Origin: an uncultured Candidatus Saccharibacteria bacterium | Lineage (GTDB): Bacteria; Patescibacteriota; Doudnabacteria; UBA920 | NCBI GenBank assembly: GCA_964372905.1 | Contig: CAYJQY010000002.1 | Span: forward strand, 38,796 to 102,795 | Reading direction: 5' to 3' | Length of the DNA: 64,000 bases | In this document: in pieces, positions 26,165 to 54,724 of the stretch | How positions within the stretch are numbered: the stretch's first letter is position 1 | Layout: every line of letters starts with the position of its first letter | The notes under the pieces: generated by a model | Told to the model about the DNA's origin: nothing | Databases searched by the model: none | The model's input: the letters and a program-made list of their open reading frames with translations, nothing else | Translations under genes and position numbers: made by a program

Positions 26165-26192
26165 GGGTGAAAGAATTATTACTGTGCAAAGT

Positions 26193-27581: not shown

Positions 27582-27612
27582 TCTCGTATACTTTATTCAG
27601 AGTGAACTTGCC

Positions 27613-27951
27613 ATGGAAAACTATCAACTCAACTTGCTGACTTTTCCGGCGTGGTGGTACACGCGCGGCCTGTGCACGGTCTGGACCTGGGCCAAGAACC
27701 GCGCGCGCTACGATCTGCGCGCTACCGGCCTGGCGCTGTTCAGCCGTCATTTGGCCGAGCCGCTGTTCGGCGATTACACCCGCTCGGGCCGTTTGGTGGG
27801 TTTCTTTTTGCGCCTGGCCATTATCATTTATAAAGTTTTGATGTTGGCCATCCGCGTTATTTTGATTGGCGCGGTTTTGCTCTTTTATTTAGTTGCCATT
27901 CCATTGGTTATTATCATGATCATTAATCAGCTGTTCATAGTGTTCGGCTAG
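27613..27951 (+). CDS. Small membrane protein, hypothetical
   Basis: 112 aa with a hydrophobic C-terminal half (LAIIIYKVLMLAIRVILIGAVLLFYLVAIPLVIIMII). Confidence 0.4.
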   Translation: MENYQLNLLTFPAWWYTRGLCTVWTWAKNRARYDLRATGLALFSRHLAEPLFGDYTRSGRLVGFFLRLAIIIYKVLMLAIRVILIGAVLLFYLVAIPLVIIMIINQLFIVFG

Positions 27952-27974
27952 GCCGTCACGTCAAATTTTTATAT

Positions 27975-30578
27975 ATGGCCGACCAGTCTTTCCAACCAGC
28001 TTTCCCAGTGACTTTCTCCGGCACGTTTGACGCGGCGCGCATAACAAAACGCCGCGCTCAAGACAAGCGCCGGCGCCTCAGCAAACATTTTTTGGAATTT
28101 TTTGGCGCCATTGGGATTATTGCTTTGGCGGCCAGCGCTTTTATTTCCTGGGTCGACGGCAATTTTTCCAGCTTTTTAACGGAGCGGCATTTTATCAATC
28201 TGATTTTTTGGCTGTCTTTAGCCACCGATTTGTATCTTTGGGCTGTGCTGCAGGAGGAACAGGTCCGTGAGCAGGAGCGCGATTTGCTTCGGTCGGGGAA
28301 TATTCAGCGTTGGTCTAAGGTGGCCGCGTCCATCGACATGTACGATTTGTTTACGCCATCGGCGCAGGATAGTTGGGATGGTAGTTTGGAGGAGGCGCAC
28401 CAGCATGGCCGCCAGCAGCCGGTGGCGGCTGATTTGCTGTTATCCTTATTGAGCCATGGCGATGTAAGATGGCTGTTGCTGCGATTCGGAATTGATGTCC
28501 GGGAATTTGGCGGACTGGTTGCGGCGGTGTCCAGCGCCGAGCCATCTTCTCTCCCCGGCGACGCCGGCACCGAGCTGGCGCGGGTTCCCAACGCCGCGCT
28601 TCAGAAAGCGCTCAAGCTCCACAACCGTGCCATAGATCCGCTCATGTTGCTCTGCGGTCTGGTGTCGATTTTGCCGCCCCAGCACCCCATCCTCGCCATT
28701 TTTTATCGCCTCGATGTGACGTTTGAACGAATTGAAACCGTGGCCGCGTGGATTTTTCATATCGAGCAGTTCGCCGAAGATTACAAAATTTTCCGCAAAC
28801 TTTCACGGTTCCGGCGCGACAGCGAAATCAATGTAGGCATGACTTCGGTACCCACGCCCTATCTCGATCAATTTAGCGATGATTTAACCTGGGCGGCCAA
28901 GCACGGCCTCCTGCCTATGACGCTGGGCCGCGAGGATGATCTCGATAAAATTTTTCATTTGCTGTCGGAAGGCCGTCAGCGCTTGCTCATTAAAGGCGCG
29001 GTGGGTACGGGCCGAACTACGGTCATAAACGAGTTGGCCTATAAAATGGTGACGGAAGAGGTGCCCAAGCTGCTGCAGGACAAGCGCCTGATCAAGCTGG
29101 AATTGGCCGCGATTTTGGGCACGCGCCTACCGGCCGAGCAGGTGCTCATGGAAGCTTTGCAAGAGGCCGAGCACTCCGGCAATATCGTTTTAGTGATCGA
29201 AGATATTCACCAGCTTAGGCAGACCTCCAGCTCGCGCGGCTTGTCCTTGTTGGAATTGCTGGTCAATCATTTGGAGCAGAGCCCGCTGGCTATCATCGCC
29301 ACCACGACCCTTGAAGATTATCAAAACGCGTTGCAGCGAACCGGCAACTTTGATTCGACTTTCACTGGTTATGAATTGAGCGACCTGACCGAGCAGCAAA
29401 TTATTTTAGCTTCTTGTTTGCGTGTCAGTCTTTTAGAACAAAAAACCGGTACGTTTTTTACGTATCCGGCTATTGCCGAAGCGGTCAAGTTATCGAGCCA
29501 GTACAGCCGGGGTGTGGGCCAGCCAGAGAAGACTATTGAGGTTTTGACTGAAGCCGCCCAGCGCAGCAAGGATTTGCCTGAAGAGCAGCGCTTGGTTACC
29601 CAGGAAACAATTCAGGGAGTGGTGAGCGAGCAGACCCACGTGCCGCAGGGGCAGTTTAGCCAGCAGGAAGCCGATAAGCTTTTGAATTTGGAAGTGATGA
29701 TTGGCGAGCAGGTGATTGGGCAAAGCGCGGCCGTGAAAGCCGTGGCCGAGGCGTTGCGGCGCGCGCGCAGCGGACTGGCTTCGGCTAGCCGGCCTCTGGC
29801 TTCGTTCCTCTTTGTGGGTCCGACCGGGGTTGGCAAAACCGAACTGGCCAAAACTTTGGCGCGGGTTTATTTCGGCGACGAACGGTTTCTGCTGCGTTTG
29901 GATATGTCGGAGTACCAGGACGGCGACGGTTTGGAAAAATTGCTTGGCCTGCCGGGCAGCGCGAATTTAACGCCGTTCGTCAATCATCTAAAAAATTATC
30001 CGTTCTGCTTATTTTTGCTTGATGAATTTGAAAAATGCTCGGGTGAGGTTTTGAATTTGTTTTTGCAGGTTTTGGAAGATGGGCGACTCACCACAACCGC
30101 CGGCGAGACTTTGGACCTAACCCATACGATTATAATAGCCACGTCCAATGCCGGAACTCCCGATATCCAAGCGGGGCTGCAGCGCGGCGATGCTTTAGAA
30201 AAAATTAAGGAAAAATTGTTCAGCGAAATTTTAAGCCAACATTTTAAGCCGGAATTGCTGAATCGGTTTGACGGGGTGATTCTGTTTACGCCATTGTCCC
30301 CGGCCGAGGTGGAGCAGGTTACGCGGCTACAGTTGGCGGATTTGGCGCAGAAACTAACGGAAAAGGGAATTGATTTGCAATTTACCGACGCGCTGGTCAG
30401 CGACGTGGCCACTAAAGCTTATGACCCGTCGCTCGGCGCCCGGCCCATTCGGCGCTATATTCAGGATCACGTCGAGAACATGGTGGCGAATTTGCTGTTG
30501 AGCCAGCCGCCGGTGCGGGGTACCGTCGTGACCATGGATATTCAAAATGGAGAAGTAATAGTTAAACTAGCTATGTAG
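27975..30578 (+). CDS. Membrane-anchored ClpC/ClpB-like double AAA+ ATPase with degenerate first nucleotide-binding domain
   Basis: Two N-terminal TM segments, then Clp_N-like repeats. D1 has Walker A GAVGTGRTT and Walker B VIEDIH, both degenerate. D2 is intact: GPTGVGKTELAKTLA, LLDEFEKC, ATSNAG. Confidence 0.75.
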   Translation: MADQSFQPAFPVTFSGTFDAARITKRRAQDKRRRLSKHFLEFFGAIGIIALAASAFISWVDGNFSSFLTERHFINLIFWLSLATDLYLWAVLQEEQVREQERDLLRSGNIQRWSKVAASIDMYDLFTPSAQDSWDGSLEEAHQHGRQQPVAADLLLSLLSHGDVRWLLLRFGIDVREFGGLVAAVSSAEPSSLPGDAGTELARVPNAALQKALKLHNRAIDPLMLLCGLVSILPPQHPILAIFYRLDVTFERIETVAAWIFHIEQFAEDYKIFRKLSRFRRDSEINVGMTSVPTPYLDQFSDDLTWAAKHGLLPMTLGREDDLDKIFHLLSEGRQRLLIKGAVGTGRTTVINELAYKMVTEEVPKLLQDKRLIKLELAAILGTRLPAEQVLMEALQEAEHSGNIVLVIEDIHQLRQTSSSRGLSLLELLVNHLEQSPLAIIATTTLEDYQNALQRTGNFDSTFTGYELSDLTEQQIILASCLRVSLLEQKTGTFFTYPAIAEAVKLSSQYSRGVGQPEKTIEVLTEAAQRSKDLPEEQRLVTQETIQGVVSEQTHVPQGQFSQQEADKLLNLEVMIGEQVIGQSAAVKAVAEALRRARSGLASASRPLASFLFVGPTGVGKTELAKTLARVYFGDERFLLRLDMSEYQDGDGLEKLLGLPGSANLTPFVNHLKNYPFCLFLLDEFEKCSGEVLNLFLQVLEDGRLTTTAGETLDLTHTIIIATSNAGTPDIQAGLQRGDALEKIKEKLFSEILSQHFKPELLNRFDGVILFTPLSPAEVEQVTRLQLADLAQKLTEKGIDLQFTDALVSDVATKAYDPSLGARPIRRYIQDHVENMVANLLLSQPPVRGTVVTMDIQNGEVIVKLAM

Positions 30579-30973
30579 ATATAAAAATGGCGGCAGGTAT
30601 TGCAAGTTCTCGGTCCTGCCGCCGCCAACGTTTGTCTAGGTGGTACTTCAATAGTCCGGCCCCTCAATCAGTTTCCGCATTCGTCTCCACAGCGGTAACT
30701 TGTAGACACTTTTTGGTTCATCGAAGCTTTCCACCAGGCCGAGTGCGTAGGCATCGCTGCCGGGCCTGCCTTTCAGTTCAAGCATGACAGCAACCTCCGG
30801 TTCCTGTGCGTCATCGCGCGGTTCTTGCATATGAACACCTCCTTAAGGTATTTTTTAGTATACTATAGAATTTCGGATTTAAAAAACCATCCACCTGGAC
30901 GGTTTGCTAGATATTTTACTCCAATGACAGTTTTACCGGCGGTTTTTTGGTTAAGCTGCTTATGAAATTATTC

Positions 30974-31600
30974 CTATTCCAAAGAAATTTTAACACTCGG
31001 CTTTTTTATCTTTTTCAACCTGCGATCCTTTTTCTTTAGGATTTCCAGGAGCCGTTTTACCAGCCGCGCCGGGTCAGTATCAAAAATAATATCTTTGTGG
31101 CCGCGCTTGGACACTTTCAAAATGTGTTGGATTTCGTCCGAGGTGCCGCCCGTACCCAGCAAAATGCCGATCGGCTTTTTATCTTCAAAAGCGATAGTGA
31201 ATTCGTTCAATGTGCCGACCCGGCCGCAGATTTCTATAACTGCGTCAGCCGCCCTGGTCAACAGCAAATTGCGCCCGGAGTAGTCGAAGCCGGTGTAAAT
31301 AATTAGGTCGAGATTTTCCGTGGGCAAGCGGTAGGTGTTGAGATGTTCGCGCTTGGTTGAGGCCGGTGACAGGCCGATGGACAAGCCATTGGCTTTTTTG
31401 GCGCCGCGCACCGCCGCTTCGGGAATGCCAATGGTGGCGCCGGTTAAAAGCACCGCGCCCTGTTTGGCTACTTGGTAGCCGACTTCGTAAGCTTTTTTAA
31501 ACGCGCCGGGCGAACAGTTATCGAATGCGGACCCCGACACGCAAATTTTATACTGGGGCTTGCCGATAAAACAGACTTTGTATTTGGGACTTTTGGTCAT
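30974..31600 (-). CDS. LOG/TIGR00725-family Rossmann-fold protein (lysine-decarboxylase-like)
   Basis: LLTGATIGIPEAAVRGA and CGRVGTLNE, which is LOG PGGxGTxxE-like. 208 aa with a basic C-terminal tail. Confidence 0.55.
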   Translation of the reverse strand: MTKSPKYKVCFIGKPQYKICVSGSAFDNCSPGAFKKAYEVGYQVAKQGAVLLTGATIGIPEAAVRGAKKANGLSIGLSPASTKREHLNTYRLPTENLDLIIYTGFDYSGRNLLLTRAADAVIEICGRVGTLNEFTIAFEDKKPIGILLGTGGTSDEIQHILKVSKRGHKDIIFDTDPARLVKRLLEILKKKDRRLKKIKKPSVKISLE

Positions 31601-31668
31601 GATATTGGGTTGTTGATAAAAATTACTGTCAGGCGGTGTGGGAGTTTAGTTAATTCGCAACGGGAATC

Positions 31669-32694
31669 CTAACGGAGACCCAATCGATTCGCGGCCCGGA
31701 GCAATCTGTAAACATTATACCATAATGGTTTTAAGACGATGTCGCTGGGCGGGGGATAGTCAATGGCGGTGCCGCCAAAACTTTCTTTGAAGCGGACAAA
31801 ACCGGGCTTGGACCCGGCTGAAGTTTCAGTCCCCCAAAAGTCATAGTAACTTAATCCATGCTTAGCCGCGTCATTTATTGCTTGCCAGTGGAGCAGGTAG
31901 GGCGCCATGACATTGCGGTTTTCCTGGCTGGAGCCGCCAAAAAGGTAGGTGCGAGTCGGCCCGAAATCAATCATAACCGCGGCGCCCAGAATCTCGCCGC
32001 GCCACAAGGCTTTAGAGACCGAAAGTTTTAATCCGCGATGGGGCTGTAAGGCGAAAAAATCAATTAATTTTTGATAATAATCGCGCCCATGGGTCCGAAA
32101 ATTTTGTCTTTTGGCCGTATGAATAATTAGATCCAGCGCCTCTTTTAAGTTCAGGCCGTGGCCCGGGCTGGCCACGAAAGTCGGCTCCACGGTAACGCCG
32201 TGCCGCAGGGCTACCTTGATGTTGTAGCGCGTTTTGGGGTGCATGGCCGCCAGAAGATATGCTTCGCTCTGGCGCAAATCCAGAAGCAAAGTCCTGCCGG
32301 GTTGAATGCGCGGCGTGGGCCGTTGTTTGTAGCCGGCAAGGTTAGCCGGAAAATATTGTTTGGGCTCCAAACGAATAAAAAACGCGCCGGGGTGCTTTTG
32401 AGCAAGATTATCGAGAAAAAATTTTAGAAGCGATAAATCGCTTCCCGCGGCCAGCGGCCCGTAGGGAAGATATAAATAGTATTGGTTCGAACCTGCGAGT
32501 TTCATTTCAACGGCCTGGCCCGCCAAGATAATTTTATTTTCCCCATTTTCAACAGCATAGCGGTGGACTCGATGCCCCAGCTGTTCCTGCCAGTCGCCCC
32601 AATCCCAGCTTTGCAAAAAACTGCCGCTCGGATGCGCGGTAATAAAATTGTTGTAGCGATTTTTTTCCTGATCTGGAAGTATGGCCAGTTTCAT
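31669..32694 (-). CDS. FemAB-family aminoacyltransferase (peptidoglycan interpeptide bridge formation, FemX-like)
   Basis: N-terminal HPSGSFLQSWDWGDWQ, characteristic of the FemABX family. 341 aa. Confidence 0.6.
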   Translation of the reverse strand: MKLAILPDQEKNRYNNFITAHPSGSFLQSWDWGDWQEQLGHRVHRYAVENGENKIILAGQAVEMKLAGSNQYYLYLPYGPLAAGSDLSLLKFFLDNLAQKHPGAFFIRLEPKQYFPANLAGYKQRPTPRIQPGRTLLLDLRQSEAYLLAAMHPKTRYNIKVALRHGVTVEPTFVASPGHGLNLKEALDLIIHTAKRQNFRTHGRDYYQKLIDFFALQPHRGLKLSVSKALWRGEILGAAVMIDFGPTRTYLFGGSSQENRNVMAPYLLHWQAINDAAKHGLSYYDFWGTETSAGSKPGFVRFKESFGGTAIDYPPPSDIVLKPLWYNVYRLLRAANRLGLR

Positions 32695-32703
32695 CGCCAG
32701 AAA

Positions 32704-33261
32704 CTATTTGCTTAAGAGTTTTAACGCTTGTTTCAGCTGATCTCCGGCTGACTCCGTGCGGTCAATCGCGCCAATGACATTGCGGACTTCGCGGTGGGAG
32801 TAGCCCAGGTTGATGAGCGCGTCGTAAATATCGCTGCTGCCCGCGCCGGTTCCGGTGAAACCGACGCCGATGATTTTATTTTTAAGTTCCAAAATAATTC
32901 GTTCGGCGGTTTTTTTGCCTACGCCGGCGATGCGCGTGAAGATTTCGCTGTCCTGATTGACAATGGCCTGCTCCAGCAATTCAATCTTAGCCGCGGAAAT
33001 AATGTTCAATGCCACTTTGGGGCCGACTCCCGACACGGTCAGCAAAAGTTCAAAAAATTGTAAAGACGGGAAGTCGGGCAGGCCGAACAGGGTTTGCGCG
33101 TCGTCGCTGACTTTGAGATAGGTGTAGAGTTCGACTTCCTGGCCGAGTTTGGCCTCGAGCACCGGCGGCGTAACCAGGACCTTATAGCCAAGACCGCTGT
33201 TTTCCATGAGCAGAAAATTCGTGCCTTTTTGCAAAATTTTCCCTTTTAGGTAAGCGATCAT
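32704..33261 (-). CDS. ruvA: Holliday junction DNA helicase RuvA
   Basis: MIAYLKGKI...GLGYKVLV OB-fold start, HhH motifs (VSGVGPKVALNII, IAGVGKKTAERII) and a C-terminal domain. Confidence 0.9.
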   Translation of the reverse strand: MIAYLKGKILQKGTNFLLMENSGLGYKVLVTPPVLEAKLGQEVELYTYLKVSDDAQTLFGLPDFPSLQFFELLLTVSGVGPKVALNIISAAKIELLEQAIVNQDSEIFTRIAGVGKKTAERIILELKNKIIGVGFTGTGAGSSDIYDALINLGYSHREVRNVIGAIDRTESAGDQLKQALKLLSK

Positions 33262-33290
33262 ATCAAAAGTATATCATGTTATAAGGCTTG

Positions 33291-34124
33291 CTAGTCGGGC
33301 AAAGAAATATTGTGGTTAGGGAGAAGTGGCAGTACGCGTTCGACGAGCCCGTCGTGGCGCTGTCCGTTGCTGCCCAATAGGCCGTGGTGATGGGTAACGT
33401 CAGGCAGATTGTAGCGCAAAGTGTGGCCGTAGAGATCGGTGAGTCTGCCGCCGGCTTCGGAAATGATGATATCAGCCGCGCATGTGTCCCACTCCGAGGC
33501 GTGGCGCGTAGCGTTAAGATAGATATCGGCTTGGCCTTCGGCCAATCGTACGGCTTTAACTCCAACGCTGTTGGTACGTTTCACTTCTTTGGCGCCGAGA
33601 TCATATGCCAGCTGGTAGGTTAGTTCCTGTTCGCGGGCGCGGCCGACAATGGCGGTCATGTTGTGAAGTTCGCGTTCCTCCGAAACATGGATTGGTTCCA
33701 GCTCTCCATTGTTGGTGGAGCGAAACGCGCCCCGGCCAAGTTCGGCGCAGTAGAGCGCGCGCGCGGTTGGCAAGTAGATGGCGCCGAGAACTGGCTTGCC
33801 GTTACGAATCAATCCAATAAGTATGGAAAAATCACCGGTGCCTCTGATGAAATCGCGCGTGCCGTCCAGCGGATCGACAATCCAAACATATTCAGCCGTT
33901 AGCCGTTCAGGATTATCCGCGGTTTCTTCGGATAAAATTGGATAATTAAACTGCTCGCCGAGAAAGGTTCTAATTAAATGTTCAGATGCCATATCGGCGG
34001 CGGTAACCGGCGTATGGTTAGTTTTCTCGCGTACGGCTTGCGGCCGGCCATAAAATTTCATGACCTCATCGCCCGCTCGCCTGGCTAATTTATTCACGGT
34101 ATATAGTGTTTCGCCAATCTGCAT
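33291..34124 (-). CDS. Inositol monophosphatase / 3'(2'),5'-bisphosphate nucleotidase family protein
   Basis: Motifs WIVDPLDGTRDF and WDTCAADIIISEAGG. Confidence 0.85.
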   Translation of the reverse strand: MQIGETLYTVNKLARRAGDEVMKFYGRPQAVREKTNHTPVTAADMASEHLIRTFLGEQFNYPILSEETADNPERLTAEYVWIVDPLDGTRDFIRGTGDFSILIGLIRNGKPVLGAIYLPTARALYCAELGRGAFRSTNNGELEPIHVSEERELHNMTAIVGRAREQELTYQLAYDLGAKEVKRTNSVGVKAVRLAEGQADIYLNATRHASEWDTCAADIIISEAGGRLTDLYGHTLRYNLPDVTHHHGLLGSNGQRHDGLVERVLPLLPNHNISLPD

Positions 34125-34146
34125 AGATTGATGGTATCATATACTT

Positions 34147-34836
34147 ATGCTTAATGAAACGCGTAATGAAATTTACCCAGCCCTTGCCGCGATTTTTGAT
34201 ATGAACGGTGTTGTAATTGATGATTTGGAATATCATCTGCGATCTTGGCAGGTGCTGGCTAAAAATCATGGCGCAACTTTAACCAGAAAAGATTTTTTCC
34301 AGGACTTAAATGGCCGGACCGCCCCTGATACCATACCCAGGATTTTTAACCGACCCGTGAGCCAGGCGGAAGTGTTGCTATTTTCCAAGGAAAAGGAGCG
34401 CTTATACAGACAGCTCTACGGGCCGCACAGAAAGTTACTGTCAGGACTGCGGCAATTACTGGTTTCATTCCAGCGTCTGAAGATACCTTGCGCAGTGGCC
34501 ACTTCCGCGCCGCCGGAAAATGTAGGCTTTATTTTGGATTATTTAAAAATTCGGAAATATTTTACAGTCGTGGTTGATGAGCGCGGAGTCAAAAAAGGTA
34601 AACCGGATCCGGAAATTTTTTTGAAGGCGGCGCGTCAGCTAGGTGTGGAACGGAATCGATGCGTAGTTTTTGAGGATGCTTTACTTGGCGTCAAGGCGGG
34701 CAAACGGGCCGGAATGAAAGTCGTGGGGGTAACCACCACCCATCCCCGAAGGGAACTGGGCCAGGCCGATCTTATTGTTAAGGATTTTAGATCTTTAACT
34801 GCCGAAAAAATGTTAAAATTATTTTTTGGGGCTTGA
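34147..34836 (+). CDS. HAD-superfamily hydrolase (beta-phosphoglucomutase-like)
   Basis: Motif I AAIFDMNGVVID (DxN variant). Motif III/IV KKGKPDPEIF...VFEDALLGVKAG. Confidence 0.7.
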   Translation: MLNETRNEIYPALAAIFDMNGVVIDDLEYHLRSWQVLAKNHGATLTRKDFFQDLNGRTAPDTIPRIFNRPVSQAEVLLFSKEKERLYRQLYGPHRKLLSGLRQLLVSFQRLKIPCAVATSAPPENVGFILDYLKIRKYFTVVVDERGVKKGKPDPEIFLKAARQLGVERNRCVVFEDALLGVKAGKRAGMKVVGVTTTHPRRELGQADLIVKDFRSLTAEKMLKLFFGA

Positions 34837-34860
34837 CAAACTTTTTTTGACGTTTATAAT
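34833..34860 (+). promoter_or_regulatory. Consensus sigma70 promoter heading a roughly 360-nt rpoB leader
   Basis: TTGACA-16 nt-TATAAT. A second TTGACG-17-TACAAT lies about 14 bp downstream. Tandem ATAGAGCTACTTTA repeats lie in the leader at 34993-35022. Confidence 0.6.
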
Positions 34861-35218
34861 TAGAAAGTGTACAATGACATAAGAAAATAGGGCATAAATA
34901 TAACCTTTTTTTACGTTTGGTCAAAAAAGGAAGTTTTTTTTGCACGGTCAGCGTTCAAGAAAAGATCAAGCGGAGCTGAAATCTTTCTAAAAATAGAGCT
35001 ACTTTAATATAGAGCTACTTTAGGTGTTTACAAGGGCCTGTGCCGGCCTCAAGGGTGGTTAACCTTGGTACCTAAAATGGCTTTATTTAAGCCACAAACT
35101 GTCAAAAATTGTTAGCAAACAATCCATAGTTAACTAGTTTGTCTTTGCATTTGCTTGCCCGACGCGCTTTACGAAGCGTCCAGACATGGGCGGCTCAAAC
35201 GCAAACCGGAAAGGAAAC

Positions 35219-38200
35219 ATGGCAAAACCTAAGGTCGCCTCGGGACAGGCCGCTATGGCCGTCCGTGAGGACAAGTTTACCCCGCGCAAGTTTTTTACAA
35301 AGCTCAAGGAGATTGGCCAGCTGCCCAACCTCATCGAAGTCCAGCTGAATTCCTATAGATGGTTTTTTGACCACGGCCTGAAAGAGTTGCTGGAGGAAAT
35401 CAATCCGATCCGCGATTTTACCGGCAAGAATTTGGAACTATATTTCGGGGAGCATTTTTTTGATAAGCCCAAGTACGACGAGAATACTTCGCGCGAGCGC
35501 AATACAACGTACGAAGCGCCTCTTTACGTCAGCGCCAAGCTGGTTAACAAAGTCACGGGCAAGTCTAAAACCCAGGATGTGTACTTCGGCGACTTCCCGC
35601 TCATGACGCCGCGTGGCACTTTTGTTATTAACGGCGTGGAGCGGGTGGTTGTGAGCCAGCTCATCAAGTCGCCGGGCGTGTTCTTTACGGCGGAGAATTT
35701 CCGCGGCAAGAATTTGTACGGCGCGAAAATTGTACCTAATCGCGGCGCGTGGCTTGAACTCGACACGGACAGTGCCGGCGTCATTGGCGTGAAAATTGAC
35801 CGCAAGCGCAGAATTCCGGTTACCGCCCTCCTGCGCGTGTTCGGTTTGTCCAAAAATGAGGACATCATCGCCGCCTTTAAAGATATCGATACCGACCCGG
35901 AAATCAAGCACATTCAAGCTACGCTCGAAAAAGACCCCAGCACCAATGCCGATGAAGGCTTCAAGGAAGTTTATAAAAGAATCCGCCCTGGAGATTTGGC
36001 CACCGTGGACAATGCGCGCTCGCTTATCACCGCAATGTTCTTTAATTTTGAGCGCTATGATCTTTCGGAAGTCGGCCGCTACAAATTTAACCAGCGTCTG
36101 AATTTACCCAAAGACAACGACAGCCGGATTTTAACTTTGGATGATGTGGTGGCCGCGGCGAGAGAAATTATTCGTCTTAATAACACCCAGCTGCCTTCGG
36201 ACGATATTGACCACTTGGCCAACCGCCGCGTGCGCGCGGTCGGGGAATTGATCCAGGCCCGTTACCGGGTGGGCTTGGCCCGCATGGCCCGCATTGCCAA
36301 AGACCGTATGAGTTTGGCAGATTTGGACACCGTCACCCCGGCCCAGTTGATTCATGTGCGTCCCATTGTGGCGGCCATGCAGGAATTTTTCTCGTCCTCC
36401 CAGCTGTCCCAGTTTATGGATCAGACTAATCCTTTGGCTGAACTTGAGCACAAGCGGCGCCTGTCGGCCATGGGCCCTGGCGGACTTTCGCGCGAACGCG
36501 CCGGCTTTGAAGTGCGCGATGTGCACCGCAGTCACTACGGCCGCTTGTGCCCCATCACCACGCCGGAAGGCCCGAACATTGGCTTGGTGGCTCACTTGGC
36601 GACTTACGCCCGCATCAATAACTTTGGTTTTATCGAAACGCCCTATCGCCTGGTAAAAAAGTTTGCCAAAAATGACGGCAAGGACGCGGTCGACGAAATC
36701 AATTTTGAGGATATTAAAGACGGGGGCAAGTTAGTTCTGCCGGCAGGCGAAAAAATCACTTCGCAGAAAGCCGCCGAGCTGAAAAAGATCTCCGGCTTGG
36801 AAAAAATCCGGGTAAAATCGCGTTTGACTAATAGCATTCACTATCTCGATGCTTATGAGGAGGAAAAACTGACCATTGGCCAGGCCAATATTGCCGTGGA
36901 TGAGCAGGGCTACTTCATGGAAGCGCGCTCTTCTGTCCGCGTTCACGGCGTGCCGGCCATCGCCGATACCAACGAACTGGATTATATTGATGTTTCATCC
37001 AAGCAGATTATTTCGGTTACCACTTCCTTGATTCCTTTTTTGGAGCATGATGACGCTAACCGCGCGCTCATGGGTTCGAACATGCAGCGCCAGGCCGTGA
37101 GCTGCATTGTGCCGCACGCGCCGATTGTCGGCACCGGCATGGAAGCCAAAGCCGCGCGCGATTCCGGACAGATCGTGGTTGCCGAAGAAGACGGCACGGT
37201 CAGCAGTGTGGTCGGCAATAAGATTGTGGTTACCAATAGTTCCGGCAAAAAGAAAGAATATTCATTGCTGAAATTTTTGCGCACCAACAGCGGCACGGCT
37301 ATCAACCAGATTGCCCGGGTGAGCAAAGGCCAAAAGGTCGGGGCGGGGGATATTTTGGCCGACGGCACTTCCACTGACCACGGCGAACTGGCTTTGGGAC
37401 AAAACGTACTGGTGGCTTTTATGTCCTGGGAAGGCGGCAATTACGAGGACGCTATTTTGCTGTCCAGCCGTCTAGTCCAGAAAGATTCTTTTACATCGGT
37501 CCATATTGAAGATTTTAAGCTCGATGTGCGCGACACCAAGCTTGGTTCAGAGGTGGTGACCCGCGATATTCCTAACGTCGGCGAAGAAAAACTTAAAGAT
37601 CTCGATGAAAACGGTGTCATTCGCATCGGCGCGCAGGTAAAAGCCGGCGACATCCTGGTCGGCAAAATTACGCCGAAAGGCGAAACCGACCTGACCGCCG
37701 AAGAAAAACTTTTACGGGTTATTTTCGGCGAGAAGTCTCGCGACGTCAAAGACACTTCTTTGACCCTGCCCCACGGCGAATATGGCAAGGTTGTGAATAT
37801 CCGCGAATTTTCCCGCGAAGCCGGGGACAAACTGCAGTCCGGCGTTATTCGTTCCATCCAGGTTTCGGTTGCGGTATTGCGCAAAATCCAGGTCGGCGAT
37901 AAAATGGCCGGCCGCCACGGCAACAAGGGCGTCATCTCCAAAATCATTCCCGTGGAAGACATGCCCTATATGGCCGATGGCATGCCCGTGGACATTATTT
38001 TGAACCCCTTGGGCGTGGTCAGCCGCATGAACCTCGGACAAATTTTGGAAACCCACCTCGGCATTGCCGCCAGCAGGCTTGGTTATAAAGTCGCTTCGCC
38101 AGTACTCGACGGAATCAGCGAGCAGCAGATTAAGGAAGAACTCAAAAAGGCCGGCATTCCCCAGGACGGCAAGGTCCGACTTTATGACGGCAAGACCGGC

Positions 38201-38710
38201 GAATCCTTCGATGAAAAAGTCACGGTCGGCGTGGCCTATATGTTAAAGCTGCACCATTTGGTTGATGATAAGATGCACGCGCGCTCCACCGGACCGTACT
38301 CTTTAATTACCCAGCAGCCTTTGGGTGGCAAGGCCCAGTTCGGCGGCCAGCGCTTCGGCGAAATGGAAGTCTGGGCTTTGGAAGGCTACGGCGCGGCGCA
38401 CACTTTGCAGGAAATGCTCACCATAAAATCGGACGACGTGGTCGGCCGCAGCAAAACTTACGAGGCCATTGTTAAAGGTGAGCCGATTAAGAAGCCCAAC
38501 ATTCCGGAAAGTTTCCGCGTGCTGGTGAAAGAATTACAGAGCTTATGTCTGGATGTGGAATTGATCGGCACGCACGGCACAATCAGCGCCTCGCAGGAAA
38601 TCGGCGTGGACCAGTTTTCAGATCGCCCGACCCAGATGGCCGCCGTTCCCGCGGCGCCGTCGCTGTTCGATGAGCCGGCTAAGAAGAAAGAAAAGAAACC
38701 GAAAAAATAA
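35219..38710 (+). CDS. rpoB: DNA-directed RNA polymerase subunit beta
   Basis: Start at MAKPKVASGQ after GGAAAGGAAAC. Conserved RpoB blocks are present throughout, including GDKMAGRHGNKGV and the rifampicin region. Confidence 0.97.
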   Translation: MAKPKVASGQAAMAVREDKFTPRKFFTKLKEIGQLPNLIEVQLNSYRWFFDHGLKELLEEINPIRDFTGKNLELYFGEHFFDKPKYDENTSRERNTTYEAPLYVSAKLVNKVTGKSKTQDVYFGDFPLMTPRGTFVINGVERVVVSQLIKSPGVFFTAENFRGKNLYGAKIVPNRGAWLELDTDSAGVIGVKIDRKRRIPVTALLRVFGLSKNEDIIAAFKDIDTDPEIKHIQATLEKDPSTNADEGFKEVYKRIRPGDLATVDNARSLITAMFFNFERYDLSEVGRYKFNQRLNLPKDNDSRILTLDDVVAAAREIIRLNNTQLPSDDIDHLANRRVRAVGELIQARYRVGLARMARIAKDRMSLADLDTVTPAQLIHVRPIVAAMQEFFSSSQLSQFMDQTNPLAELEHKRRLSAMGPGGLSRERAGFEVRDVHRSHYGRLCPITTPEGPNIGLVAHLATYARINNFGFIETPYRLVKKFAKNDGKDAVDEINFEDIKDGGKLVLPAGEKITSQKAAELKKISGLEKIRVKSRLTNSIHYLDAYEEEKLTIGQANIAVDEQGYFMEARSSVRVHGVPAIADTNELDYIDVSSKQIISVTTSLIPFLEHDDANRALMGSNMQRQAVSCIVPHAPIVGTGMEAKAARDSGQIVVAEEDGTVSSVVGNKIVVTNSSGKKKEYSLLKFLRTNSGTAINQIARVSKGQKVGAGDILADGTSTDHGELALGQNVLVAFMSWEGGNYEDAILLSSRLVQKDSFTSVHIEDFKLDVRDTKLGSEVVTRDIPNVGEEKLKDLDENGVIRIGAQVKAGDILVGKITPKGETDLTAEEKLLRVIFGEKSRDVKDTSLTLPHGEYGKVVNIREFSREAGDKLQSGVIRSIQVSVAVLRKIQVGDKMAGRHGNKGVISKIIPVEDMPYMADGMPVDIILNPLGVVSRMNLGQILETHLGIAASRLGYKVASPVLDGISEQQIKEELKKAGIPQDGKVRLYDGKTGESFDEKVTVGVAYMLKLHHLVDDKMHARSTGPYSLITQQPLGGKAQFGGQRFGEMEVWALEGYGAAHTLQEMLTIKSDDVVGRSKTYEAIVKGEPIKKPNIPESFRVLVKELQSLCLDVELIGTHGTISASQEIGVDQFSDRPTQMAAVPAAPSLFDEPAKKKEKKPKK

Positions 38711-38722: not shown

Positions 38723-38812
38723 CGGCTCGGGATACTTTTTCTCCTAGCTGCGGAACTCGCCGCTAACGCGGCTCAAACAGTCCTCGCGTAGTCGAAAAAG
38801 ATCCGCTCGCCG
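38723..38812. repeat. 90-bp intergenic repeat element, copy A (rpoB-rpoC spacer)
   Basis: About 97% identical to 53749..53837. Both copies contain a GCCGC-loop-GCGGC hairpin whose loop differs (TAAC vs TTC). Confidence 0.8.
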
Positions 38813-38856: not shown

Positions 38857-41800
38857 ATGTTCACCCAAACCGACGAATTCAAGGGTGTAAAAATCAAACT
38901 GGCCAGCCCCAGCATGATTTTGTCGTGGTCGCACGGCGAAGTCATCAAGCCGGAAACCATCAACTACCGCACCCAGCGCCCGGAAAAGGACGGCCTGTTC
39001 GATGAGAAAATTTTCGGCCCTATTAAGGACTGGGAATGTTATTGCGGCAAGTACAAGCGCATCCGTTACAAGAACATTGTCTGCGACAAATGCGGCGTGG
39101 AAGTCACCAAGAGCAGCGTGCGCCGCGAACGCATGGGTCACATCAAGCTGGCCGTGCCCGTGGCCCACATCTGGTTTTTGCGCGGCGTGCCTTCCCGCCT
39201 TGGCCTCATGCTTGATTTGGGCGTGCAAGAACTGGAAAAGCTGGTCTATTTTGCGGCTTACATTATTACTCATGTGGACGAAGCCGTGCGCGCCGCGACT
39301 TTAGAACAAATTGAGCAGGAATTTAAGGCCAAGAAAAAGGAAATTGAGTCGCGCTACGATATGCTCATCGCCAAGACCCGCACGCAGATGCAGAAAGAAG
39401 GCGGAAAAAAAGACGCTCCTGTTTTGGCCGCGGAAATTGACGCGGAAATTACCCGTCTTAAGGATATTTGGTCCAAGGAGGTAGACAATTTGGAAGACAT
39501 TCGCGATCAGGCCAAAAGCGAACTCAAGGGCATAAAGAGAATGCAGATTATTTCCGAGCTGGAGTACCGGGATTTGTCTTTGAAATACGGTCCGGTTTTC
39601 CGGGCGGGAATCGGCGCGGAGGCCCTGCAGGGTTTGCTGGAAAACATCAATTTGGAAGAATTGGCCGCGGAACTGGAAGGACAGTTGAAAAATTTGGAAG
39701 GCCAGGCCGCCAAAAAGACCCTGCGCCGTCTCAAGCTGATGAAATCTTTGATCAATGCCGGCCTGCGTCCGGAGTGGATGCTGATTACCATGTTGCCGGT
39801 AATTCCGCCGGACCTGCGTCCAATGGTTCAGTTGGACGGCGGCCGGTTTGCCGCCTCGGATTTGAATGATTTGTATCGCCGCGTCATCAACCGCAATAAT
39901 CGTTTAAAAAAATTATTGGAGATAAAATCTCCGGAAGTCATTACCCGCAACGAGAAGCGCATGCTTCAGGAAGCCGTAGACGCGTTAATAGACAACTCGG
40001 TGCGTCATGGCAAGGAAGTTACGGCTTCCACCGGCCAGAAGCGCAAACTGCGAAGCTTGGCCGACATGTTGAAAGGCAAGCAGGGCCGGTTCCGCCAGAA
40101 TTTGCTGGGCAAGCGCGTGGACTATTCCGGCCGCAGCGTTATTGTGGTCGGCCCGCATCTGAAATTGCACCAGTGCGGCCTGCCCAAGCAGATGGCCTTG
40201 GAACTGTTCAAGCCGTTTGTGATTTCCAAGTTGATTGCGCGCGAGTATGCCCACAATGTGCGCAGCGCCAATCGTTTAATTGAGCAGGCCCGTACAGAGG
40301 TTTATGATATTTTGGAGGAAGTTACGAAGGACCACTATGTATTATTGAACCGCGCGCCGACTTTGCACCGCCTCGGCTTCCAGGCCTTCCAACCGGTCTT
40401 AATAGAAGGCAAGGCCATTCAGCTTCATCCCATGGTCTGCGCCGCGTTTAACGCCGATTTTGACGGCGACCAAATGGCCGTACACGTGCCGCTGACTGAC
40501 TTGGCCCAGAAAGAGGCTCGCGAGATCATGGTATCCGCGCACAATTTGCTTAAGCCGGCTTCAGGCGATCCGGTTATGACTCCGGATAAAGACGTTGTTG
40601 TCGGCTGCTACTACATAACTAAATTCCGCGCTGGCGTGAAAGGCGAGGGTAAAATCTTTTCCACTCCGGGAGAGGCCATTTTGGCTTACAATAACAAATT
40701 TGTTCACATTCAAGCCAAAATCAAAGTCAATTTATCTGAATTGGGTTTGACCGAAACCTCTGTCGGACGACTCATCTTCAATAAAATCGTGCCCAAAGAA
40801 TTGGGTTTCCGCAATGAGGTGTTCGACAAGAAAAAACTTCAGGTCCTGGTCAGCGAGGCCTATAAAAATTTGGGCAATGACCGCACGGCCGAACTGATTG
40901 ATGAAATCAAGCGCACCGGATTTTACTATATGAAAAAATCCGGCCTGTCCTGGGGTATGGATGATTTGCGCGTGCCGGAAAGCAAGTATGAAATGCTTAA
41001 GCAGGCTGACGGTGAAGTCCAGCAGACTTATGAGCAATACCGTGAAGGTTTGTTGACTGAAGATGAACGCAAAAACCGCGTAGTGGAAATTTGGGCTGAT
41101 ATTTCGGAAAAAATCGCTAAAAGCGTGACTCAAACCGTGGATGAACACAGCAGCGTGAATTACATGGTGTCGTCCGGCGCCCGCGGTTCTTTTTCCCAAA
41201 TCACCCAGATGTCCGGCATGAAAGGCTTGGTGGTCAATCCGGCCGGCGACGTTATTGAATTGCCGGTGCGCGGGAGCTTTAAGGAAGGCTTGGGTGTTCT
41301 GGAATATTTCATTTCCACTCACGGTTCCCGGAAAGGAATGTCAGATACGGCCTTGCGTACGGCCGATGCCGGTTATTTAACTCGCCGTTTGGTGGACGTC
41401 GCCCAGGATGTTGTTATTAATGCTGAGGACTGCGGCACAGAAGAATATAATATCATCACCCGCGCTGAATCCGAAGCCATGAACAAGTCCTTTGAGCGCC
41501 GCTTGTTCGGCCGCGTGGCCGCGGAAAATATTAAAGGACCCAAGGGAAAAATTTTGGTTAAGCGCAATGAAGGGATTGATTCAGAAGTGGCCAAGGAGAT
41601 TGATAGGTCCGACCTTGCCGAAGTCAAATGCCGCAGCGTTCTGAAATGCAAATTGCCGCGCGGCATCTGCCGTCTGTGCTATGGTTATGATCTTGGCTTT
41701 AATACAATGGTTGAGAGGGGAGCCGCCGTGGGTATTGTGGCCGCGCAAGCCATTGGCGAACCGGGTACCCAGCTGACCATGCGTACGTTCCACACCGGAG

Positions 41801-42816
41801 GTTCGGCTTCAGTCAAAGATATTACCCAAGGCTTGCCGCGGGTGGAAGAATTATTTGAAGTCCGCGAGCCCAAAGGCCAGGCCACAGTGGCGGAAATTGA
41901 CGGCAAGGCCCATATTAGCACTTCCAGCGCCAAAGAGCAGGTAGTAACTATTGAGGGCGCCGGAGTCGAATTAGACGCTTATGAATTGCCGGAAAATACG
42001 CCATCATCAATTAAAGATGCCGCGCACGTTGAAACCGGCGACACTCTGTATATTGACCGTGAAGGCAAACATATTAAGGCCAAGAACGCCGGTATTGCGC
42101 GGGTGGAAAACAACAAGATCAAAGTGGTTCATGAGAACGACGACCTCAAAGAATACATCATCCCTTCGGCCTATTCTTTATTGGTTAAAGAAGGCGAGTT
42201 GGTTATCAAAGGCCAGCCGCTGACTGAAGGCAATTTGAACCCGGTGCAGATTATGGAATTGCGCGGCGTCCAGGAAGCGCAGAAATATATCGTCAAAGAA
42301 GTCCAGGCCATCTACATGTCGCAAGGGCAGAATATTCACGACAAACACGTGGAAGTGATTGTGCGGCAGATGTTTTCCAAGGTACGCATTACCAATCCGG
42401 GCGACAGCGACTTTATTACCGGCGATATGATGGATAAAGCCAAATTAGCCGAGATAAATGAGCGGTTGGCAGCGGAAGGCCGCACCCCGGCGAAGTTTGA
42501 CCAGCTGCTTATGGGCATCACTAAAGTTTCGCTGAATACCGAGTCATTTTTGGCTGCGGCGAGCTTCCAAGAGACCACGCGCGTGTTAATTGAAGCGGCC
42601 GTGACTGGCAAGACTGACTGGCTGCGCGGGCTGAAGGAAAACGTGATTATCGGCAAGCTCATTCCGGCCGGCACGGGGTTTAACGCTGATGTTAATGCCG
42701 ATGTGGTCAAGGAAGGGGAGCAGGAGCAGCAGCTGCCGCTTTCTGTTGATGCTTCTGACGAGGCTCCGGTTGTGGCCGAACCACAGCCGGCGGAAGATTC
42801 TGTAGCTGCTGAATAG
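38857..42816 (+). CDS. rpoC: DNA-directed RNA polymerase subunit beta'
   Basis: Zn finger CYCGKYKRI...CDKCGVEV and the catalytic NADFDGD. 1319 aa. Confidence 0.97.
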   Translation: MFTQTDEFKGVKIKLASPSMILSWSHGEVIKPETINYRTQRPEKDGLFDEKIFGPIKDWECYCGKYKRIRYKNIVCDKCGVEVTKSSVRRERMGHIKLAVPVAHIWFLRGVPSRLGLMLDLGVQELEKLVYFAAYIITHVDEAVRAATLEQIEQEFKAKKKEIESRYDMLIAKTRTQMQKEGGKKDAPVLAAEIDAEITRLKDIWSKEVDNLEDIRDQAKSELKGIKRMQIISELEYRDLSLKYGPVFRAGIGAEALQGLLENINLEELAAELEGQLKNLEGQAAKKTLRRLKLMKSLINAGLRPEWMLITMLPVIPPDLRPMVQLDGGRFAASDLNDLYRRVINRNNRLKKLLEIKSPEVITRNEKRMLQEAVDALIDNSVRHGKEVTASTGQKRKLRSLADMLKGKQGRFRQNLLGKRVDYSGRSVIVVGPHLKLHQCGLPKQMALELFKPFVISKLIAREYAHNVRSANRLIEQARTEVYDILEEVTKDHYVLLNRAPTLHRLGFQAFQPVLIEGKAIQLHPMVCAAFNADFDGDQMAVHVPLTDLAQKEAREIMVSAHNLLKPASGDPVMTPDKDVVVGCYYITKFRAGVKGEGKIFSTPGEAILAYNNKFVHIQAKIKVNLSELGLTETSVGRLIFNKIVPKELGFRNEVFDKKKLQVLVSEAYKNLGNDRTAELIDEIKRTGFYYMKKSGLSWGMDDLRVPESKYEMLKQADGEVQQTYEQYREGLLTEDERKNRVVEIWADISEKIAKSVTQTVDEHSSVNYMVSSGARGSFSQITQMSGMKGLVVNPAGDVIELPVRGSFKEGLGVLEYFISTHGSRKGMSDTALRTADAGYLTRRLVDVAQDVVINAEDCGTEEYNIITRAESEAMNKSFERRLFGRVAAENIKGPKGKILVKRNEGIDSEVAKEIDRSDLAEVKCRSVLKCKLPRGICRLCYGYDLGFNTMVERGAAVGIVAAQAIGEPGTQLTMRTFHTGGSASVKDITQGLPRVEELFEVREPKGQATVAEIDGKAHISTSSAKEQVVTIEGAGVELDAYELPENTPSSIKDAAHVETGDTLYIDREGKHIKAKNAGIARVENNKIKVVHENDDLKEYIIPSAYSLLVKEGELVIKGQPLTEGNLNPVQIMELRGVQEAQKYIVKEVQAIYMSQGQNIHDKHVEVIVRQMFSKVRITNPGDSDFITGDMMDKAKLAEINERLAAEGRTPAKFDQLLMGITKVSLNTESFLAAASFQETTRVLIEAAVTGKTDWLRGLKENVIIGKLIPAGTGFNADVNADVVKEGEQEQQLPLSVDASDEAPVVAEPQPAEDSVAAE

Positions 42817-51258: not shown

Positions 51259-51333
51259 TGGTAGCCCATGGGGGAATCGAACCCCCGTTACCTGGCTGAA
51301 AACCAGATGTCCTAACCACTAGACGAATGGGCC
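51259..51333 (-). tRNA. tRNA-Glu (anticodon UUC), CCA encoded
   Basis: Manual fold: acceptor GGCCCAT/ATGGGCT (G1-U72), D-arm GTCT/GGAC with loop AGTGGTTA, anticodon stem TCTGG/CCAGG with loop TTTTCAG (UUC), T-arm GGGGG-TTCGATT-CCCCC, discriminator A, then CCA. Confidence 0.85.
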
Positions 51334-51448: not shown

Positions 51449-51487
51449 GCTTGATCTTTCCGACCAGCTTGCTGGCTGTGGAGATTC
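51449..51487. repeat. ~40-bp repeat element, copy 2
   Basis: GCTTGATCTTTCCGACCAGCTTGCTGGCTGTGGAGATTC. It lies between divergent promoters: livK on the + strand, and a TTGAAA-17-TAAAGT candidate upstream of tRNA-Glu on the - strand. Confidence 0.6.
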
Positions 51488-51541
51488 GTTTAACTCCTAT
51501 TGAAGCCCCCTCATCGACCATAAAAGCCACAAAAAGTCAAT

Positions 51542-52860: not shown

Positions 52861-53727
52861 ATGTCCATCCTCCCGCAGCTGATTGCCAACAGCGTTATTG
52901 CCGGCGCCATCTATGCCCTCATCGCGCTCGGTTTTAATTTGGTCTACTCGACGACCAAGTTTTTTAATTTGACGCACGGCGTAATGGCCGCGGTCGGCGG
53001 CTACGCCGTGTTTTATCTGGCGGCTACTTTGGGTTGGAACATTCATGTCAGCGTCATAGTCGGCGCTTTGGCCGCGGGTGCGCTCGGCTACGTTTTAGAC
53101 CGGCTGGTCTACCGTCCGCTGCGCCGGCGCAAGGCTTCGCGCCTGGTTTTGCTCGTTGCCTCGCTGGGCGCGTTCACCGTAATCCAGGCCACGCTGGCTA
53201 TTATTTTTACCAGCCAGTTTCAGACTTTGTCGCAGTACGCGCCCATTCAAAAAATTTACGAAATCGGCGGCGCGGCCATTACCGGCGTGCAGCTTCTGAT
53301 TTTATTTTCCTCTCTGGCCATTATGTTGATCCTGACGCTTGTCCTTAAATTTACGTTGTTCGGGACCGCGGTCAAAGCCATTGCCGATGATGAGGAAGTC
53401 GCCAAAATTGTCGGCATTGATACCGATAAAATTATCGGCCGCGTGTTTTTTATTGGTTCGGCCATTGCCGGGCTGGTGGGAATTTACGTGGGCTTTGACA
53501 CGGGCATTGAACCAACCATGGGCCTGCGCCTTCTGCTGTCCGGCGTCATCGCTTCCATTATCGGGGGTGTGGGCAATGTTTACGCCGGCGTGGTTGGCGC
53601 GTTCGTGCTGGGCTTCGCGGAAAACTTCGGCATCTGGAAAATTTCCGGCGAATGGAAAGACGCCATCGCTTTCGGCCTGCTGATTTTATTTTTAATTTTC
53701 CGGCCGCAGGGAATTTTTAAAAGATGA
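52861..53727 (+). CDS. livH: Branched-chain amino acid ABC transporter permease LivH
   Basis: 288 aa with 8 TM helices. LivH-type N-terminus MSILPQLIANSVIAGAIYALIALGFNLVY. Confidence 0.85.
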   Translation: MSILPQLIANSVIAGAIYALIALGFNLVYSTTKFFNLTHGVMAAVGGYAVFYLAATLGWNIHVSVIVGALAAGALGYVLDRLVYRPLRRRKASRLVLLVASLGAFTVIQATLAIIFTSQFQTLSQYAPIQKIYEIGGAAITGVQLLILFSSLAIMLILTLVLKFTLFGTAVKAIADDEEVAKIVGIDTDKIIGRVFFIGSAIAGLVGIYVGFDTGIEPTMGLRLLLSGVIASIIGGVGNVYAGVVGAFVLGFAENFGIWKISGEWKDAIAFGLLILFLIFRPQGIFKR

Positions 53728-53748
53728 AACTTAGATTATTTTGATGGG

Positions 53749-53837
53749 CGGCTCGGGATACTTTTTCTCCTGGCTGCGGAACTCGCCGCTTCGCGGCTCA
53801 AACAGTCCTCGCGTAGTCGAAAAAGATCCGCTCGCCG
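53749..53837. repeat. 90-bp intergenic repeat element, copy B (livH-livM spacer)
   Basis: See copy A. It had been wrongly translated as the first 39 codons of the listed 53741 ORF. It has an in-frame stop in copy A and a frameshifting indel between copies, so it is non-coding. Confidence 0.8.
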
Positions 53838-53857
53838 CCTTAAGCAATAGCAAATTT

Positions 53858-54724
53858 ATGGAATATTTAACTCATCTCGCAATCCTGGTTTCCATCTACG
53901 CCATTTTGGCCATGAGCTTGAATTTGGTTGTGGGATATACCGGCTTGCTGGCTTCAGGCCACGCGGCGTTTTACGGGATTGGCGCATACGTAACCGCGTT
54001 GCTCCTCACCCGTGTCGGCATGAATTTTTTCCCCGCCTTGGGTTTAGCCATACTTATTTCCGCCGGCGCTGGTCTGGCCATTGGCCTGGTTTTAAGCCGT
54101 TTCAAAGCCGACTTTTATGTCCTGGCCTCGCTCGGCTTTAATGCCATTGTCTTTAGCATCATGCTCAATTGGCAAGATCTCACCCGTGGCCCGTTGGGCA
54201 TTCCCGGCATTCCGCGGCCCCAGCTGGCGGGCTTGGATTTTTCATCAAACCAAAATTTTCTGCTGCTGTCTGTTGTGCTGGCCGTGGTAGTGTATGTGCT
54301 GGCGCGACTCATTGCCAATTCTTCTTTCGGCCGCGTGCTCAAAGCCATTCGGGAAGATGAAACCGTAGCTGGCGTGTTTGGCTATCACACTATGCATTAT
54401 AAATTGATAATATTCGTCATCGCCGCTGGCCTCGCCGCCATTGCCGGCGCGCTGTTCGCCTCGTATATTACCTTTATTGATCCTACCACGTTCAACATCG
54501 CCGAATCAATTTTCCTCTTGGCCATAATTATTCTCGGTGGCCTGGCCAATTTAAATGGAGCGATTCTTGGCGCGCTGTTTTTAACCCTGCTGCCCGAACT
54601 CCTGCGCTTCGTGGGCTTTCCCTCGGATGTGGCCGCGCAAATGCGCCAGGTCGTCTATGGTTTGCTGCTGATTATTTTGATGCTGTACCGGCCCCAGGGC
54701 CTGATGGGGGAGTATAAGCTATAA
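53858..54724 (+). CDS. livM: Branched-chain amino acid ABC transporter permease LivM
   Basis: Start at MEYLTHLAILVS. LivM-type TM layout. 289 aa. Confidence 0.85.
   Translation: MEYLTHLAILVSIYAILAMSLNLVVGYTGLLASGHAAFYGIGAYVTALLLTRVGMNFFPALGLAILISAGAGLAIGLVLSRFKADFYVLASLGFNAIVFSIMLNWQDLTRGPLGIPGIPRPQLAGLDFSSNQNFLLLSVVLAVVVYVLARLIANSSFGRVLKAIREDETVAGVFGYHTMHYKLIIFVIAAGLAAIAGALFASYITFIDPTTFNIAESIFLLAIIILGGLANLNGAILGALFLTLLPELLRFVGFPSDVAAQMRQVVYGLLLIILMLYRPQGLMGEYKL

Follow-up and report, generated by a model that had tools for sequence, protein, structure and literature searches.

A palindromic repeat of 95-96 nt is present in two copies, 15 kb apart, in the 64-kb stretch of Patescibacteria DNA analysed here (the window): copy A in the spacer between rpoB and rpoC, and copy B in the spacer between livH and livM. 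The repeat is a discrete unit with sharp boundaries at the base of a predicted hairpin and with a base composition foreign to its surroundings. On balance, it is likely to be a non-autonomous palindromic repeat, similar to miniature inverted-repeat elements (MITEs) or to REPINs and largely neutral to its host, and two copies of it are known. A MITE- or REP-like nature, one of several suggestions of the first-pass annotation, is the most economical reading.

The two copies and their genomic setting

The features of the two sites are as follows.

35186..38710, + strand, rpoB, upstream of copy A (TIGR02013, 1577 bits), a single ORF of 1174 aa
38720..38815, + strand, copy A, 96 nt, rpoB-rpoC spacer (covariance model score 121 bits)
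38759..38772, + strand, apical hairpin of copy A, GCCGC-TAAC-GCGGC, with the loop TAA a stop codon in the frame leading to rpoC
38767..38812 and 53792..53837, + strand, 46-nt block identical in copies A and B
38857..42816, + strand, rpoC, downstream of copy A (TIGR02386, 1607 bits)
51451-52776, substrate-binding protein (SBP), first gene of the Liv-type operon (NCBIfam)
52861..53727, + strand, livH, LivH-type ABC permease, upstream of copy B (NCBIfam)
53746..53840, + strand, copy B, 95 nt, livH-livM spacer (covariance model score 115 bits)
53785..53797, + strand, apical hairpin of copy B, GCCGC-TTC-GCGGC
53858..54724, + strand, livM, LivM-type ABC permease, downstream of copy B (NCBIfam)
54742-55866, second SBP of the Liv-type operon (NCBIfam)
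55863-56594, livG (NCBIfam)
56679-57413, livF (NCBIfam)

The repeat was originally described as two 90-nt cores on one strand, at 38723-38812 and 53749-53837, with about 97% identity and three differing positions. Both cores were found at these positions, and the identity and the number of differences were reproduced. The first difference is an A/G substitution (38746 vs 53772); the other two, one substitution and one 1-nt indel, distinguish the loop TAAC of copy A from the loop TTC of copy B. Pairwise alignment including 40-nt flanks revealed near-identity within the element and background similarity beyond it, the flanks being unrelated. The complete unit exceeds the 90-nt core by 3 nt on each side, and the added bases lengthen the terminal stem. 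The termini read GGACGGC...GCCGTCC in copy A and GGGCGGC...GCCGCCT in copy B, and the terminal 25-30-mers of the element are CGGCTCGGGATACTTTTTCTCCT and GTCGAAAAAGATCCGCTCGCCG. The identity between the two copies ends exactly at the base of the 32-bp imperfect hairpin, formed by this terminal stem. The GC content is 0.59 in copy A vs 0.22 in the other 50 nt of the rpoB-rpoC spacer, and 0.62 in copy B vs 0.20 in the other 35 nt of the livH-livM spacer.

Each half of the element, searched with up to three mismatches, has exactly two occurrences in the window, matching exactly or with one R position, and the number of chance matches expected from dinucleotide-preserving shuffles of the window is 0.00. 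No third copy or half copy was detected in the 64-kb window with blastn-short and nhmmer (filters off) or with the covariance model, and no gene in the window is flanked by a partial copy. Target-site duplications of 3 nt or more are absent at both copies when the boundaries are shifted from -3 to +7 nt; direct matches of 2 nt at the element ends are found only inside the conserved stem.

Other repeats were recognized in the window. A near-perfect 18-bp inverted repeat (15422-15475; 94% complementary, 18-nt loop), unrelated to the palindromic element, is located in the 275-nt spacer between 14273-15304 and 15580-16152. A 63-nt direct repeat (19501-19563 and 19806-19868; 71% identity, 305 nt apart) has one copy upstream of a RhuM/Fic-domain gene (19605-20621) and one inside it, with inverted repeats at 19495-19622.

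Copy A begins 9 nt past the rpoB stop codon and finishes 41 nt ahead of the rpoC ATG, and copy B begins 18 nt past the livH stop codon and finishes 17 nt ahead of the livM ATG. Both copies are on the coding strand, with a stop codon before and the next start after, and the NCBIfam gene calls agree with the earlier description of a discrete repeat in two spacers between co-directional genes. Neither a sigma-70-like promoter nor an intrinsic terminator was found at either copy on either strand. Since the genes are 130-146 nt apart without such a terminator or promoter consensus, co-transcription is most likely.

Several conventional functions were rejected. The stem is GC-rich and followed by no T-run (TCGATAG directly after the stem of copy A, TAAGCAA after that of copy B), and a terminator or attenuator was rejected for this reason. 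In Rfam 15, no family reaches its gathering threshold on the element, the best E-values being at least 3 and far under threshold; this, together with the absence of the element in relatives described below, speaks against a riboswitch or leader. The solitary occurrence of the copies speaks against a CRISPR or a tandem repeat. The copies are not attL and attR of an integrated island because the 15 kb between them carries essential genes (rpoC, a class-I aminoacyl-tRNA synthetase and tsaD). Scans of 39 window ORFs with Pfam and NCBIfam detected no domain of a transposase or RAYT.

The sole Rfam match in the window is a tRNA gene at 51262-51333 on the - strand, between copies A and B. The Liv-type ABC uptake operon of this Patescibacteria genome (51451-57413) is complete and encodes two substrate-binding proteins, and a glutamate dehydrogenase gene (61177-62460) is present further downstream. 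This Liv-type transport capacity is more than was expected for a CPR genome.

Predicted fold, pairing and coding capacity

The whole unit is one imperfect palindrome, in which two inverted arms are separated by a loop of 3-4 nt and 32 pairs are distributed over three helices. The 7-bp terminal stem leads through an internal loop into a middle helix with 20 pairs, which is capped by the 5-bp apical stem GCCGC/GCGGC. In the outer part of the middle helix GGAT·CTTTTTC pairs with GAAAAAG·ATCC, and the inner part is broken by bulges. A hairpin had been proposed before, and folding supports a long one: the 32 pairs are predicted with a minimum free energy (MFE) between -40 and -50 kcal/mol. The - strand has the lower values (-44 to -50 kcal/mol, vs about -40 to -42 kcal/mol for the + strand), and the folding z-scores against shuffles are -2.5 to -4.6. 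With DNA parameters, an alternative form is predicted that has a separate small hairpin in each arm. The arm consensus CGGC-N2-3-SGGAT-N0-1-CTTTTTC-NN-CTRS-NN-G-N-GGA matches all four arms and nowhere else in the 64 kb; in each copy, the + strand match is the left arm and the - strand match the right arm. Because one pattern fits the four arms only, the arms behave as terminal inverted repeats.

The first-pass annotation had interpreted the change of the loop over a preserved stem as covariation. This interpretation is mistaken: the loop varies, the 5-pair apical stem never does, and an invariant stem is therefore uninformative on covariation. Variation is found instead elsewhere in the hairpin. 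In the alignment of copies A and B, standard pairs occupy all 64 cells (32 pairs in two sequences), and pairing is kept at all the stem differences. The sole compensatory pair is at columns 3/94 in the terminal stem (A-U to G-C, or A-T to G-C as DNA). Wobble pairs arise at columns 1/96 (G-C to G-U) and 27/70 (A-U to G-U). Columns 3/94 and 1/96 are outside the 90-nt core described earlier. The compensatory pair is genuine, yet it is a single event, and with two sequences the pair statistics are non-significant, the observed values being reached in 258 of 500 shuffles. Two other origins of this pair may be considered. The outer GGR/YCC may be target sequence, with GGA/TCC and GGG/CCT as the empty sites, or the change may be due to templated repair from arm to arm within the palindrome. 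Both wobble pairs would turn into C-A mismatches on the - strand, which mildly favours the sense strand; the - strand nevertheless folds better overall.

The element as such is non-coding, as had been claimed, because copy A carries stop codons in all six frames; the loop indel also shifts the frame between the copies. A search with the six-frame peptides of the element, aimed at ORFs running into other copies, returned no match at E ≤ 1 among 5.8 billion proteins. In copy B, a frame is open from TTG 53741 and ATG 53744 through the element into livM, and the earlier warning of a wrong upstream start call for livM is therefore justified. The ATG at 53744-53746 arises at the junction of the left flank and copy B and is in frame with livM; a start there would add 38 residues to LivM (MGGSGYFFSWLRNSPLRGSNSPRVVEKDPLAALSNSKF; region 53741-53860). 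Gene calls on independently assembled Logan contigs (L093-L095) carry the livM ORF through the element to the contig edge. In the 288-aa form of LivM, the alignment to the family profiles (NCBIfam) begins at residue 6; this form starts at ATG 53858, which is the probable true start.

Related loci, independent assemblies and the search for further copies

The C-terminus of RpoB is 71-78% identical to those of Patescibacteria MAGs among the GTDB species representatives, and 85-90% identical to fragments in a large protein collection, in which Candidatus Doudnabacteria is the sole named lineage. The six closest relatives with retrievable contigs, which are 86-90% identical in the RpoB C-terminal region, have the following rpoB-rpoC spacers.

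L085, 82 nt
L086, 32 nt
L087, 21 nt
L088, 1 nt
L096, 122 nt, AT-rich and unrelated to the element
L097, 20 nt
This window, 146 nt

The spacers are 27-87 nt in more distant Patescibacteria MAGs (GTDB), and that of the window would be 50 nt without the element, which is within the normal range. The element is absent from the rpoB-rpoC loci of the relatives by nhmmer (L085-L088) and by the covariance model derived from copies A and B (all six). Because the orthologous spacer of the nearest relatives lacks the element, its presence between rpoB and rpoC is a lineage-specific insertion. The first-pass annotation had named, as a combination suggesting a chance local duplication, a genome-wide total of two copies and absence from both sites in related genomes; at the rpoB-rpoC site the relatives do lack the element.

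In three of the relatives, rpoB was called as two or three adjacent ORFs (L085 65-3560, L087 8575-12065, L088 5601-9119). The frame changes seen with tblastn are at differing positions in each relative, and a run of N is present at the junction in L087; these are probably scaffold gaps or assembly frameshifts and not a split gene. L087 and L088 share the block order uvrB, ruvA, femAB, SLOG/LDcluster4, Mur ligase, tsaD, ABC-2 transporter, rpoB. The genes of this block are present at 21899-38710 of the window, rearranged and partly inverted, and three genes are inserted ahead of rpoB, encoding a ClpB-like ATPase, an inositol monophosphatase and a HAD hydrolase. Five matched sequences are titled 'uncultured Gammaproteobacteria' or 'Bdellovibrionales' (L007, L009, L024, L045, L055). 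They encode RpoB 66-78% identical to the CPR protein of the window and rank among the Patescibacteria matches, and their titles look like taxonomic mislabels.

Contigs 99.8-100% identical to the window were obtained from three sequencing runs in Logan (ERR4904390, ERR4904391, ERR3478686) through exact-protein look-ups. On the livH side they end at 53821, and on the livM side they start at 53808 (two runs) or 53792; the left part of copy B is present in L001/L002 and the right part in L093-L095. In a k=31 graph, these are exactly the positions at which the 46-nt shared block forms a node with two incoming and two outgoing edges. The samples of the three runs are thereby proven to contain two or more occurrences of the block. 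Misassembly of the window does not account for the repeat, since three independent runs break at the positions predicted from it. The breaks were also considered as a sign of many copies, and this was rejected: the k=31 arithmetic gives 53821 and 53808 from copies A and B alone. As these two copies fully explain the breaks, the breaks are silent on further copies. The Logan samples contain no other copy that has a 31-mer in common with the left half of copy B. A separate contig end was observed about 1.4 kb beyond the 3' end of the window (L083 7437-7636), where the contig stops intergenically after an asparaginase-like gene. Its sequence is unrelated to the palindromic element, and the end might represent a different repeat or a drop in coverage.

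Broader searches did not reveal any relative of the element. In GTDB species genomes and JGI metagenomes, exact 23-mers from its two halves have no match, and the arm consensus has none in viral contigs. In JGI metagenomes the arm consensus has four single-arm matches, all in coding sequence of contigs with 57-62% GC and without an inverted partner; they were rejected as chance matches on account of the coding location and the missing partner. Against plasmids and phages, blastn returned only fragments with E-values of 0.3-0.9, for example in virB10. In 1.4 Mb of related loci, no relative was found with nhmmer (88 loci) or with the covariance model (31 Patescibacteria-type loci and the window, 474 kb); these scans returned nothing beyond copies A and B themselves and a truncated part of copy B. 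A match with E = 0.37 at L009 9201-9308 is just upstream of the matched rpoB C-terminal segment; for this reason, it probably is inside the rpoB coding sequence and a chance match.

Origin of the repeat and comparison with known elements

An origin without any mobile family has a minor but appreciable chance of being correct. In this explanation, a hairpin-forming spacer segment was copied once by ectopic duplication or gene conversion, and no dedicated enzyme was involved. It agrees with the observation of exactly two copies 15 kb apart on the same strand, with the lack of a target-site duplication, with the lack of a transposase in the window ORFs scanned, and with the lack of a family member in the collections searched. 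However, the copied unit is exactly a complete palindrome and carried no flanking base with it. Its GC content is foreign to both spacers, and therefore neither site looks like the native source. The empty rpoB-rpoC site of the relatives also speaks against such a duplication.

A function as a cis-acting RNA is of rather low probability. The element would then be a selected hairpin on the + strand, for processing, stability or protein binding, which sets the expression ratios of rpoB to rpoC and of livH to livM. The stable predicted fold and the same orientation of both copies relative to transcription, between a stop codon and the next start, are in favour of this, as is the pattern of the four stem substitutions: all of them keep the pairing on the + strand (one compensatory pair, two G-U), and on the - strand C-A mismatches would replace the two G-U pairs. 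Against this, the same orientation of two copies is expected by chance in half of the cases, the pair statistics of two sequences are non-significant, the - strand folds better overall, and Rfam has no match. The element is missing from the rpoB-rpoC spacer of every relative examined and is therefore not an ancestral regulatory feature. Identity of about 97% across two unrelated operons indicates recent copying and not functional convergence.

It is very unlikely that the element is an independent small RNA gene or the source of an antisense RNA from the - strand. The - strand has the lower MFE (-50 and -44 kcal/mol vs about -42 kcal/mol on the + strand; z-scores down to -4.6), but the promoter, terminator and Rfam searches were negative for it, the two wobble changes disrupt its pairing, and the flanks share nothing able to carry expression signals. 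Translation of copy B as a 38-aa N-terminal extension of LivM, for which the in-frame palindromic insertions known as Rickettsia palindromic elements provide the comparison, is hardly tenable: the frame is open from an ATG created at the flank/element junction, but every frame of copy A contains stops, the shorter form is matched by the family profiles from its residue 6 onwards, the peptides of the element are in no database protein, and initiation at an ATG at the base of a -41 kcal/mol stem would probably be hindered.

The preferred explanation remains a MITE/REPIN-like repeat. According to it, a palindrome of about 96 bp would have reached, by recent copying, two AT-rich spacers inside operons of a Doudnabacteria-like CPR genome, and would have spread, now or formerly, by means of an enzyme acting in trans and presumably encoded elsewhere in the genome. 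Transposition of the IS200/IS605 type and of the RAYT type proceeds through single strands and inserts without target-site duplications. A mechanism of one of these types would fit the missing duplications, and their absence argues against a classical DDE-type MITE insertion. Co-transcribed with the flanking genes, the element would fold, within the polycistronic mRNA, into an RNA hairpin of about -41 kcal/mol. As has been demonstrated for REP and ERIC elements (PMC3184786), such a hairpin might at most slow a 3'-exonuclease or offer a site for a double-strand RNase, and the element would be mostly a neutral passenger.

MITEs are generally shorter than 200 bp, have inverted repeats, form a long RNA stem-loop, and are located at the 3' ends of genes, with which they are co-transcribed (PMC3184786). 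As a class they are also dispersed in multiple copies flanked by target-site duplications, with a cognate transposase of matching ends encoded elsewhere in the genome. Hairpin-forming examples are ERIC of Enterobacteriaceae (~127 bp), Correia/NEMIS of Neisseria (~104-157 bp) and RUP of S. pneumoniae (107 bp), and effects on mRNA have been demonstrated for ERIC and Correia elements (PMC3184786). The present element agrees with MITEs in its size of 95-96 nt, its terminal inverted repeats, its predicted RNA-level stem-loop and the lack of a transposase ORF; a target-site duplication is found at neither copy. It resembles ERIC, Correia and RUP as an imperfect palindrome of about 100 bp with inverted arms, no ORF and a predicted stable stem-loop, located just downstream of genes inside operons and restricted to a lineage. 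Unlike them, it has no TA or other target-site duplication, is similar in sequence to nothing searched, is known from two copies and has no known partner transposase, and effects on mRNA would be expected for it only by inference.

REPINs are REP doublets that form hairpins, are mobilised by RAYT tyrosine transposases, and show compensatory changes across the hairpin (PMC3116915). The element resembles them in its overall arrangement of two inverted arms with a short spacer, which is predicted to form a hairpin of about 100 nt in single-stranded DNA or mRNA; from two copies, conserved REP cores are indistinguishable from the spacer. A compensatory change across the hairpin and the lack of duplications at the ends are further similarities. 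Each of its arms can also form its own small hairpin under DNA parameters, as in REPINs. REPs associated with RAYTs typically carry a 5' GT[AG]G head. The element differs in this respect, as its termini read GGRCGGC on both strands and the GT[AG]G head is not terminal: GTAG is found only internally at 38789-38792, the other arm has CTAG, and CTAC is also internal. It also differs from REPINs in that no RAYT was found in the window ORFs scanned and in that REPINs number tens to hundreds of copies, whereas the element is known from two. A limited literature search returned no description of REPINs in CPR bacteria.

The REP/BIME elements of E. coli are operon-internal stabilisers of mRNA, for example between malE and malF (cf. 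bioRxiv 10.64898/2026.03.23.713779). Copy B is comparable to them as a GC-rich hairpin between two ABC-transporter cistrons, and by analogy it is positioned as a possible barrier to 3'-exonucleases for the upstream cistron. The element has about three times the length of a single REP, and its sequence is unrelated. It is thus probable that the element is an ordinary kind of small hairpin repeat in an unusual host, with a sequence unrelated to any described family.

A more far-reaching interpretation is at present quite speculative: the element would be the first recognized member of a family of palindromic mobile elements that is specific to CPR bacteria and causes no duplication on insertion. 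It would insert centrally in short GGR/YCC-like sites of AT-rich operon spacers (GGA/TCC and GGG/CCT once the 90-nt core is removed), and its sense orientation would be kept because polycistronic mRNAs, among them that of the core genes of RNA polymerase, are partitioned by its RNA hairpin.

For genome annotation, the element matters in MAGs of this lineage in two ways. It gives rise to an ATG in frame with livM and to an open frame leading into that gene, and hence to wrong start calls, and it fragments short-read assemblies at both sites, which leads to broken contigs. There is hardly any documentation of small palindromic repeats from Patescibacteria, whose genomes are reduced. Should there be no more than two copies, the element is a minor curiosity. 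If it belongs to a multi-copy family, selfish mini-elements would persist in Patescibacteria, even between rpoB and rpoC, and the family would provide a handle on mRNA processing in unculturable organisms.
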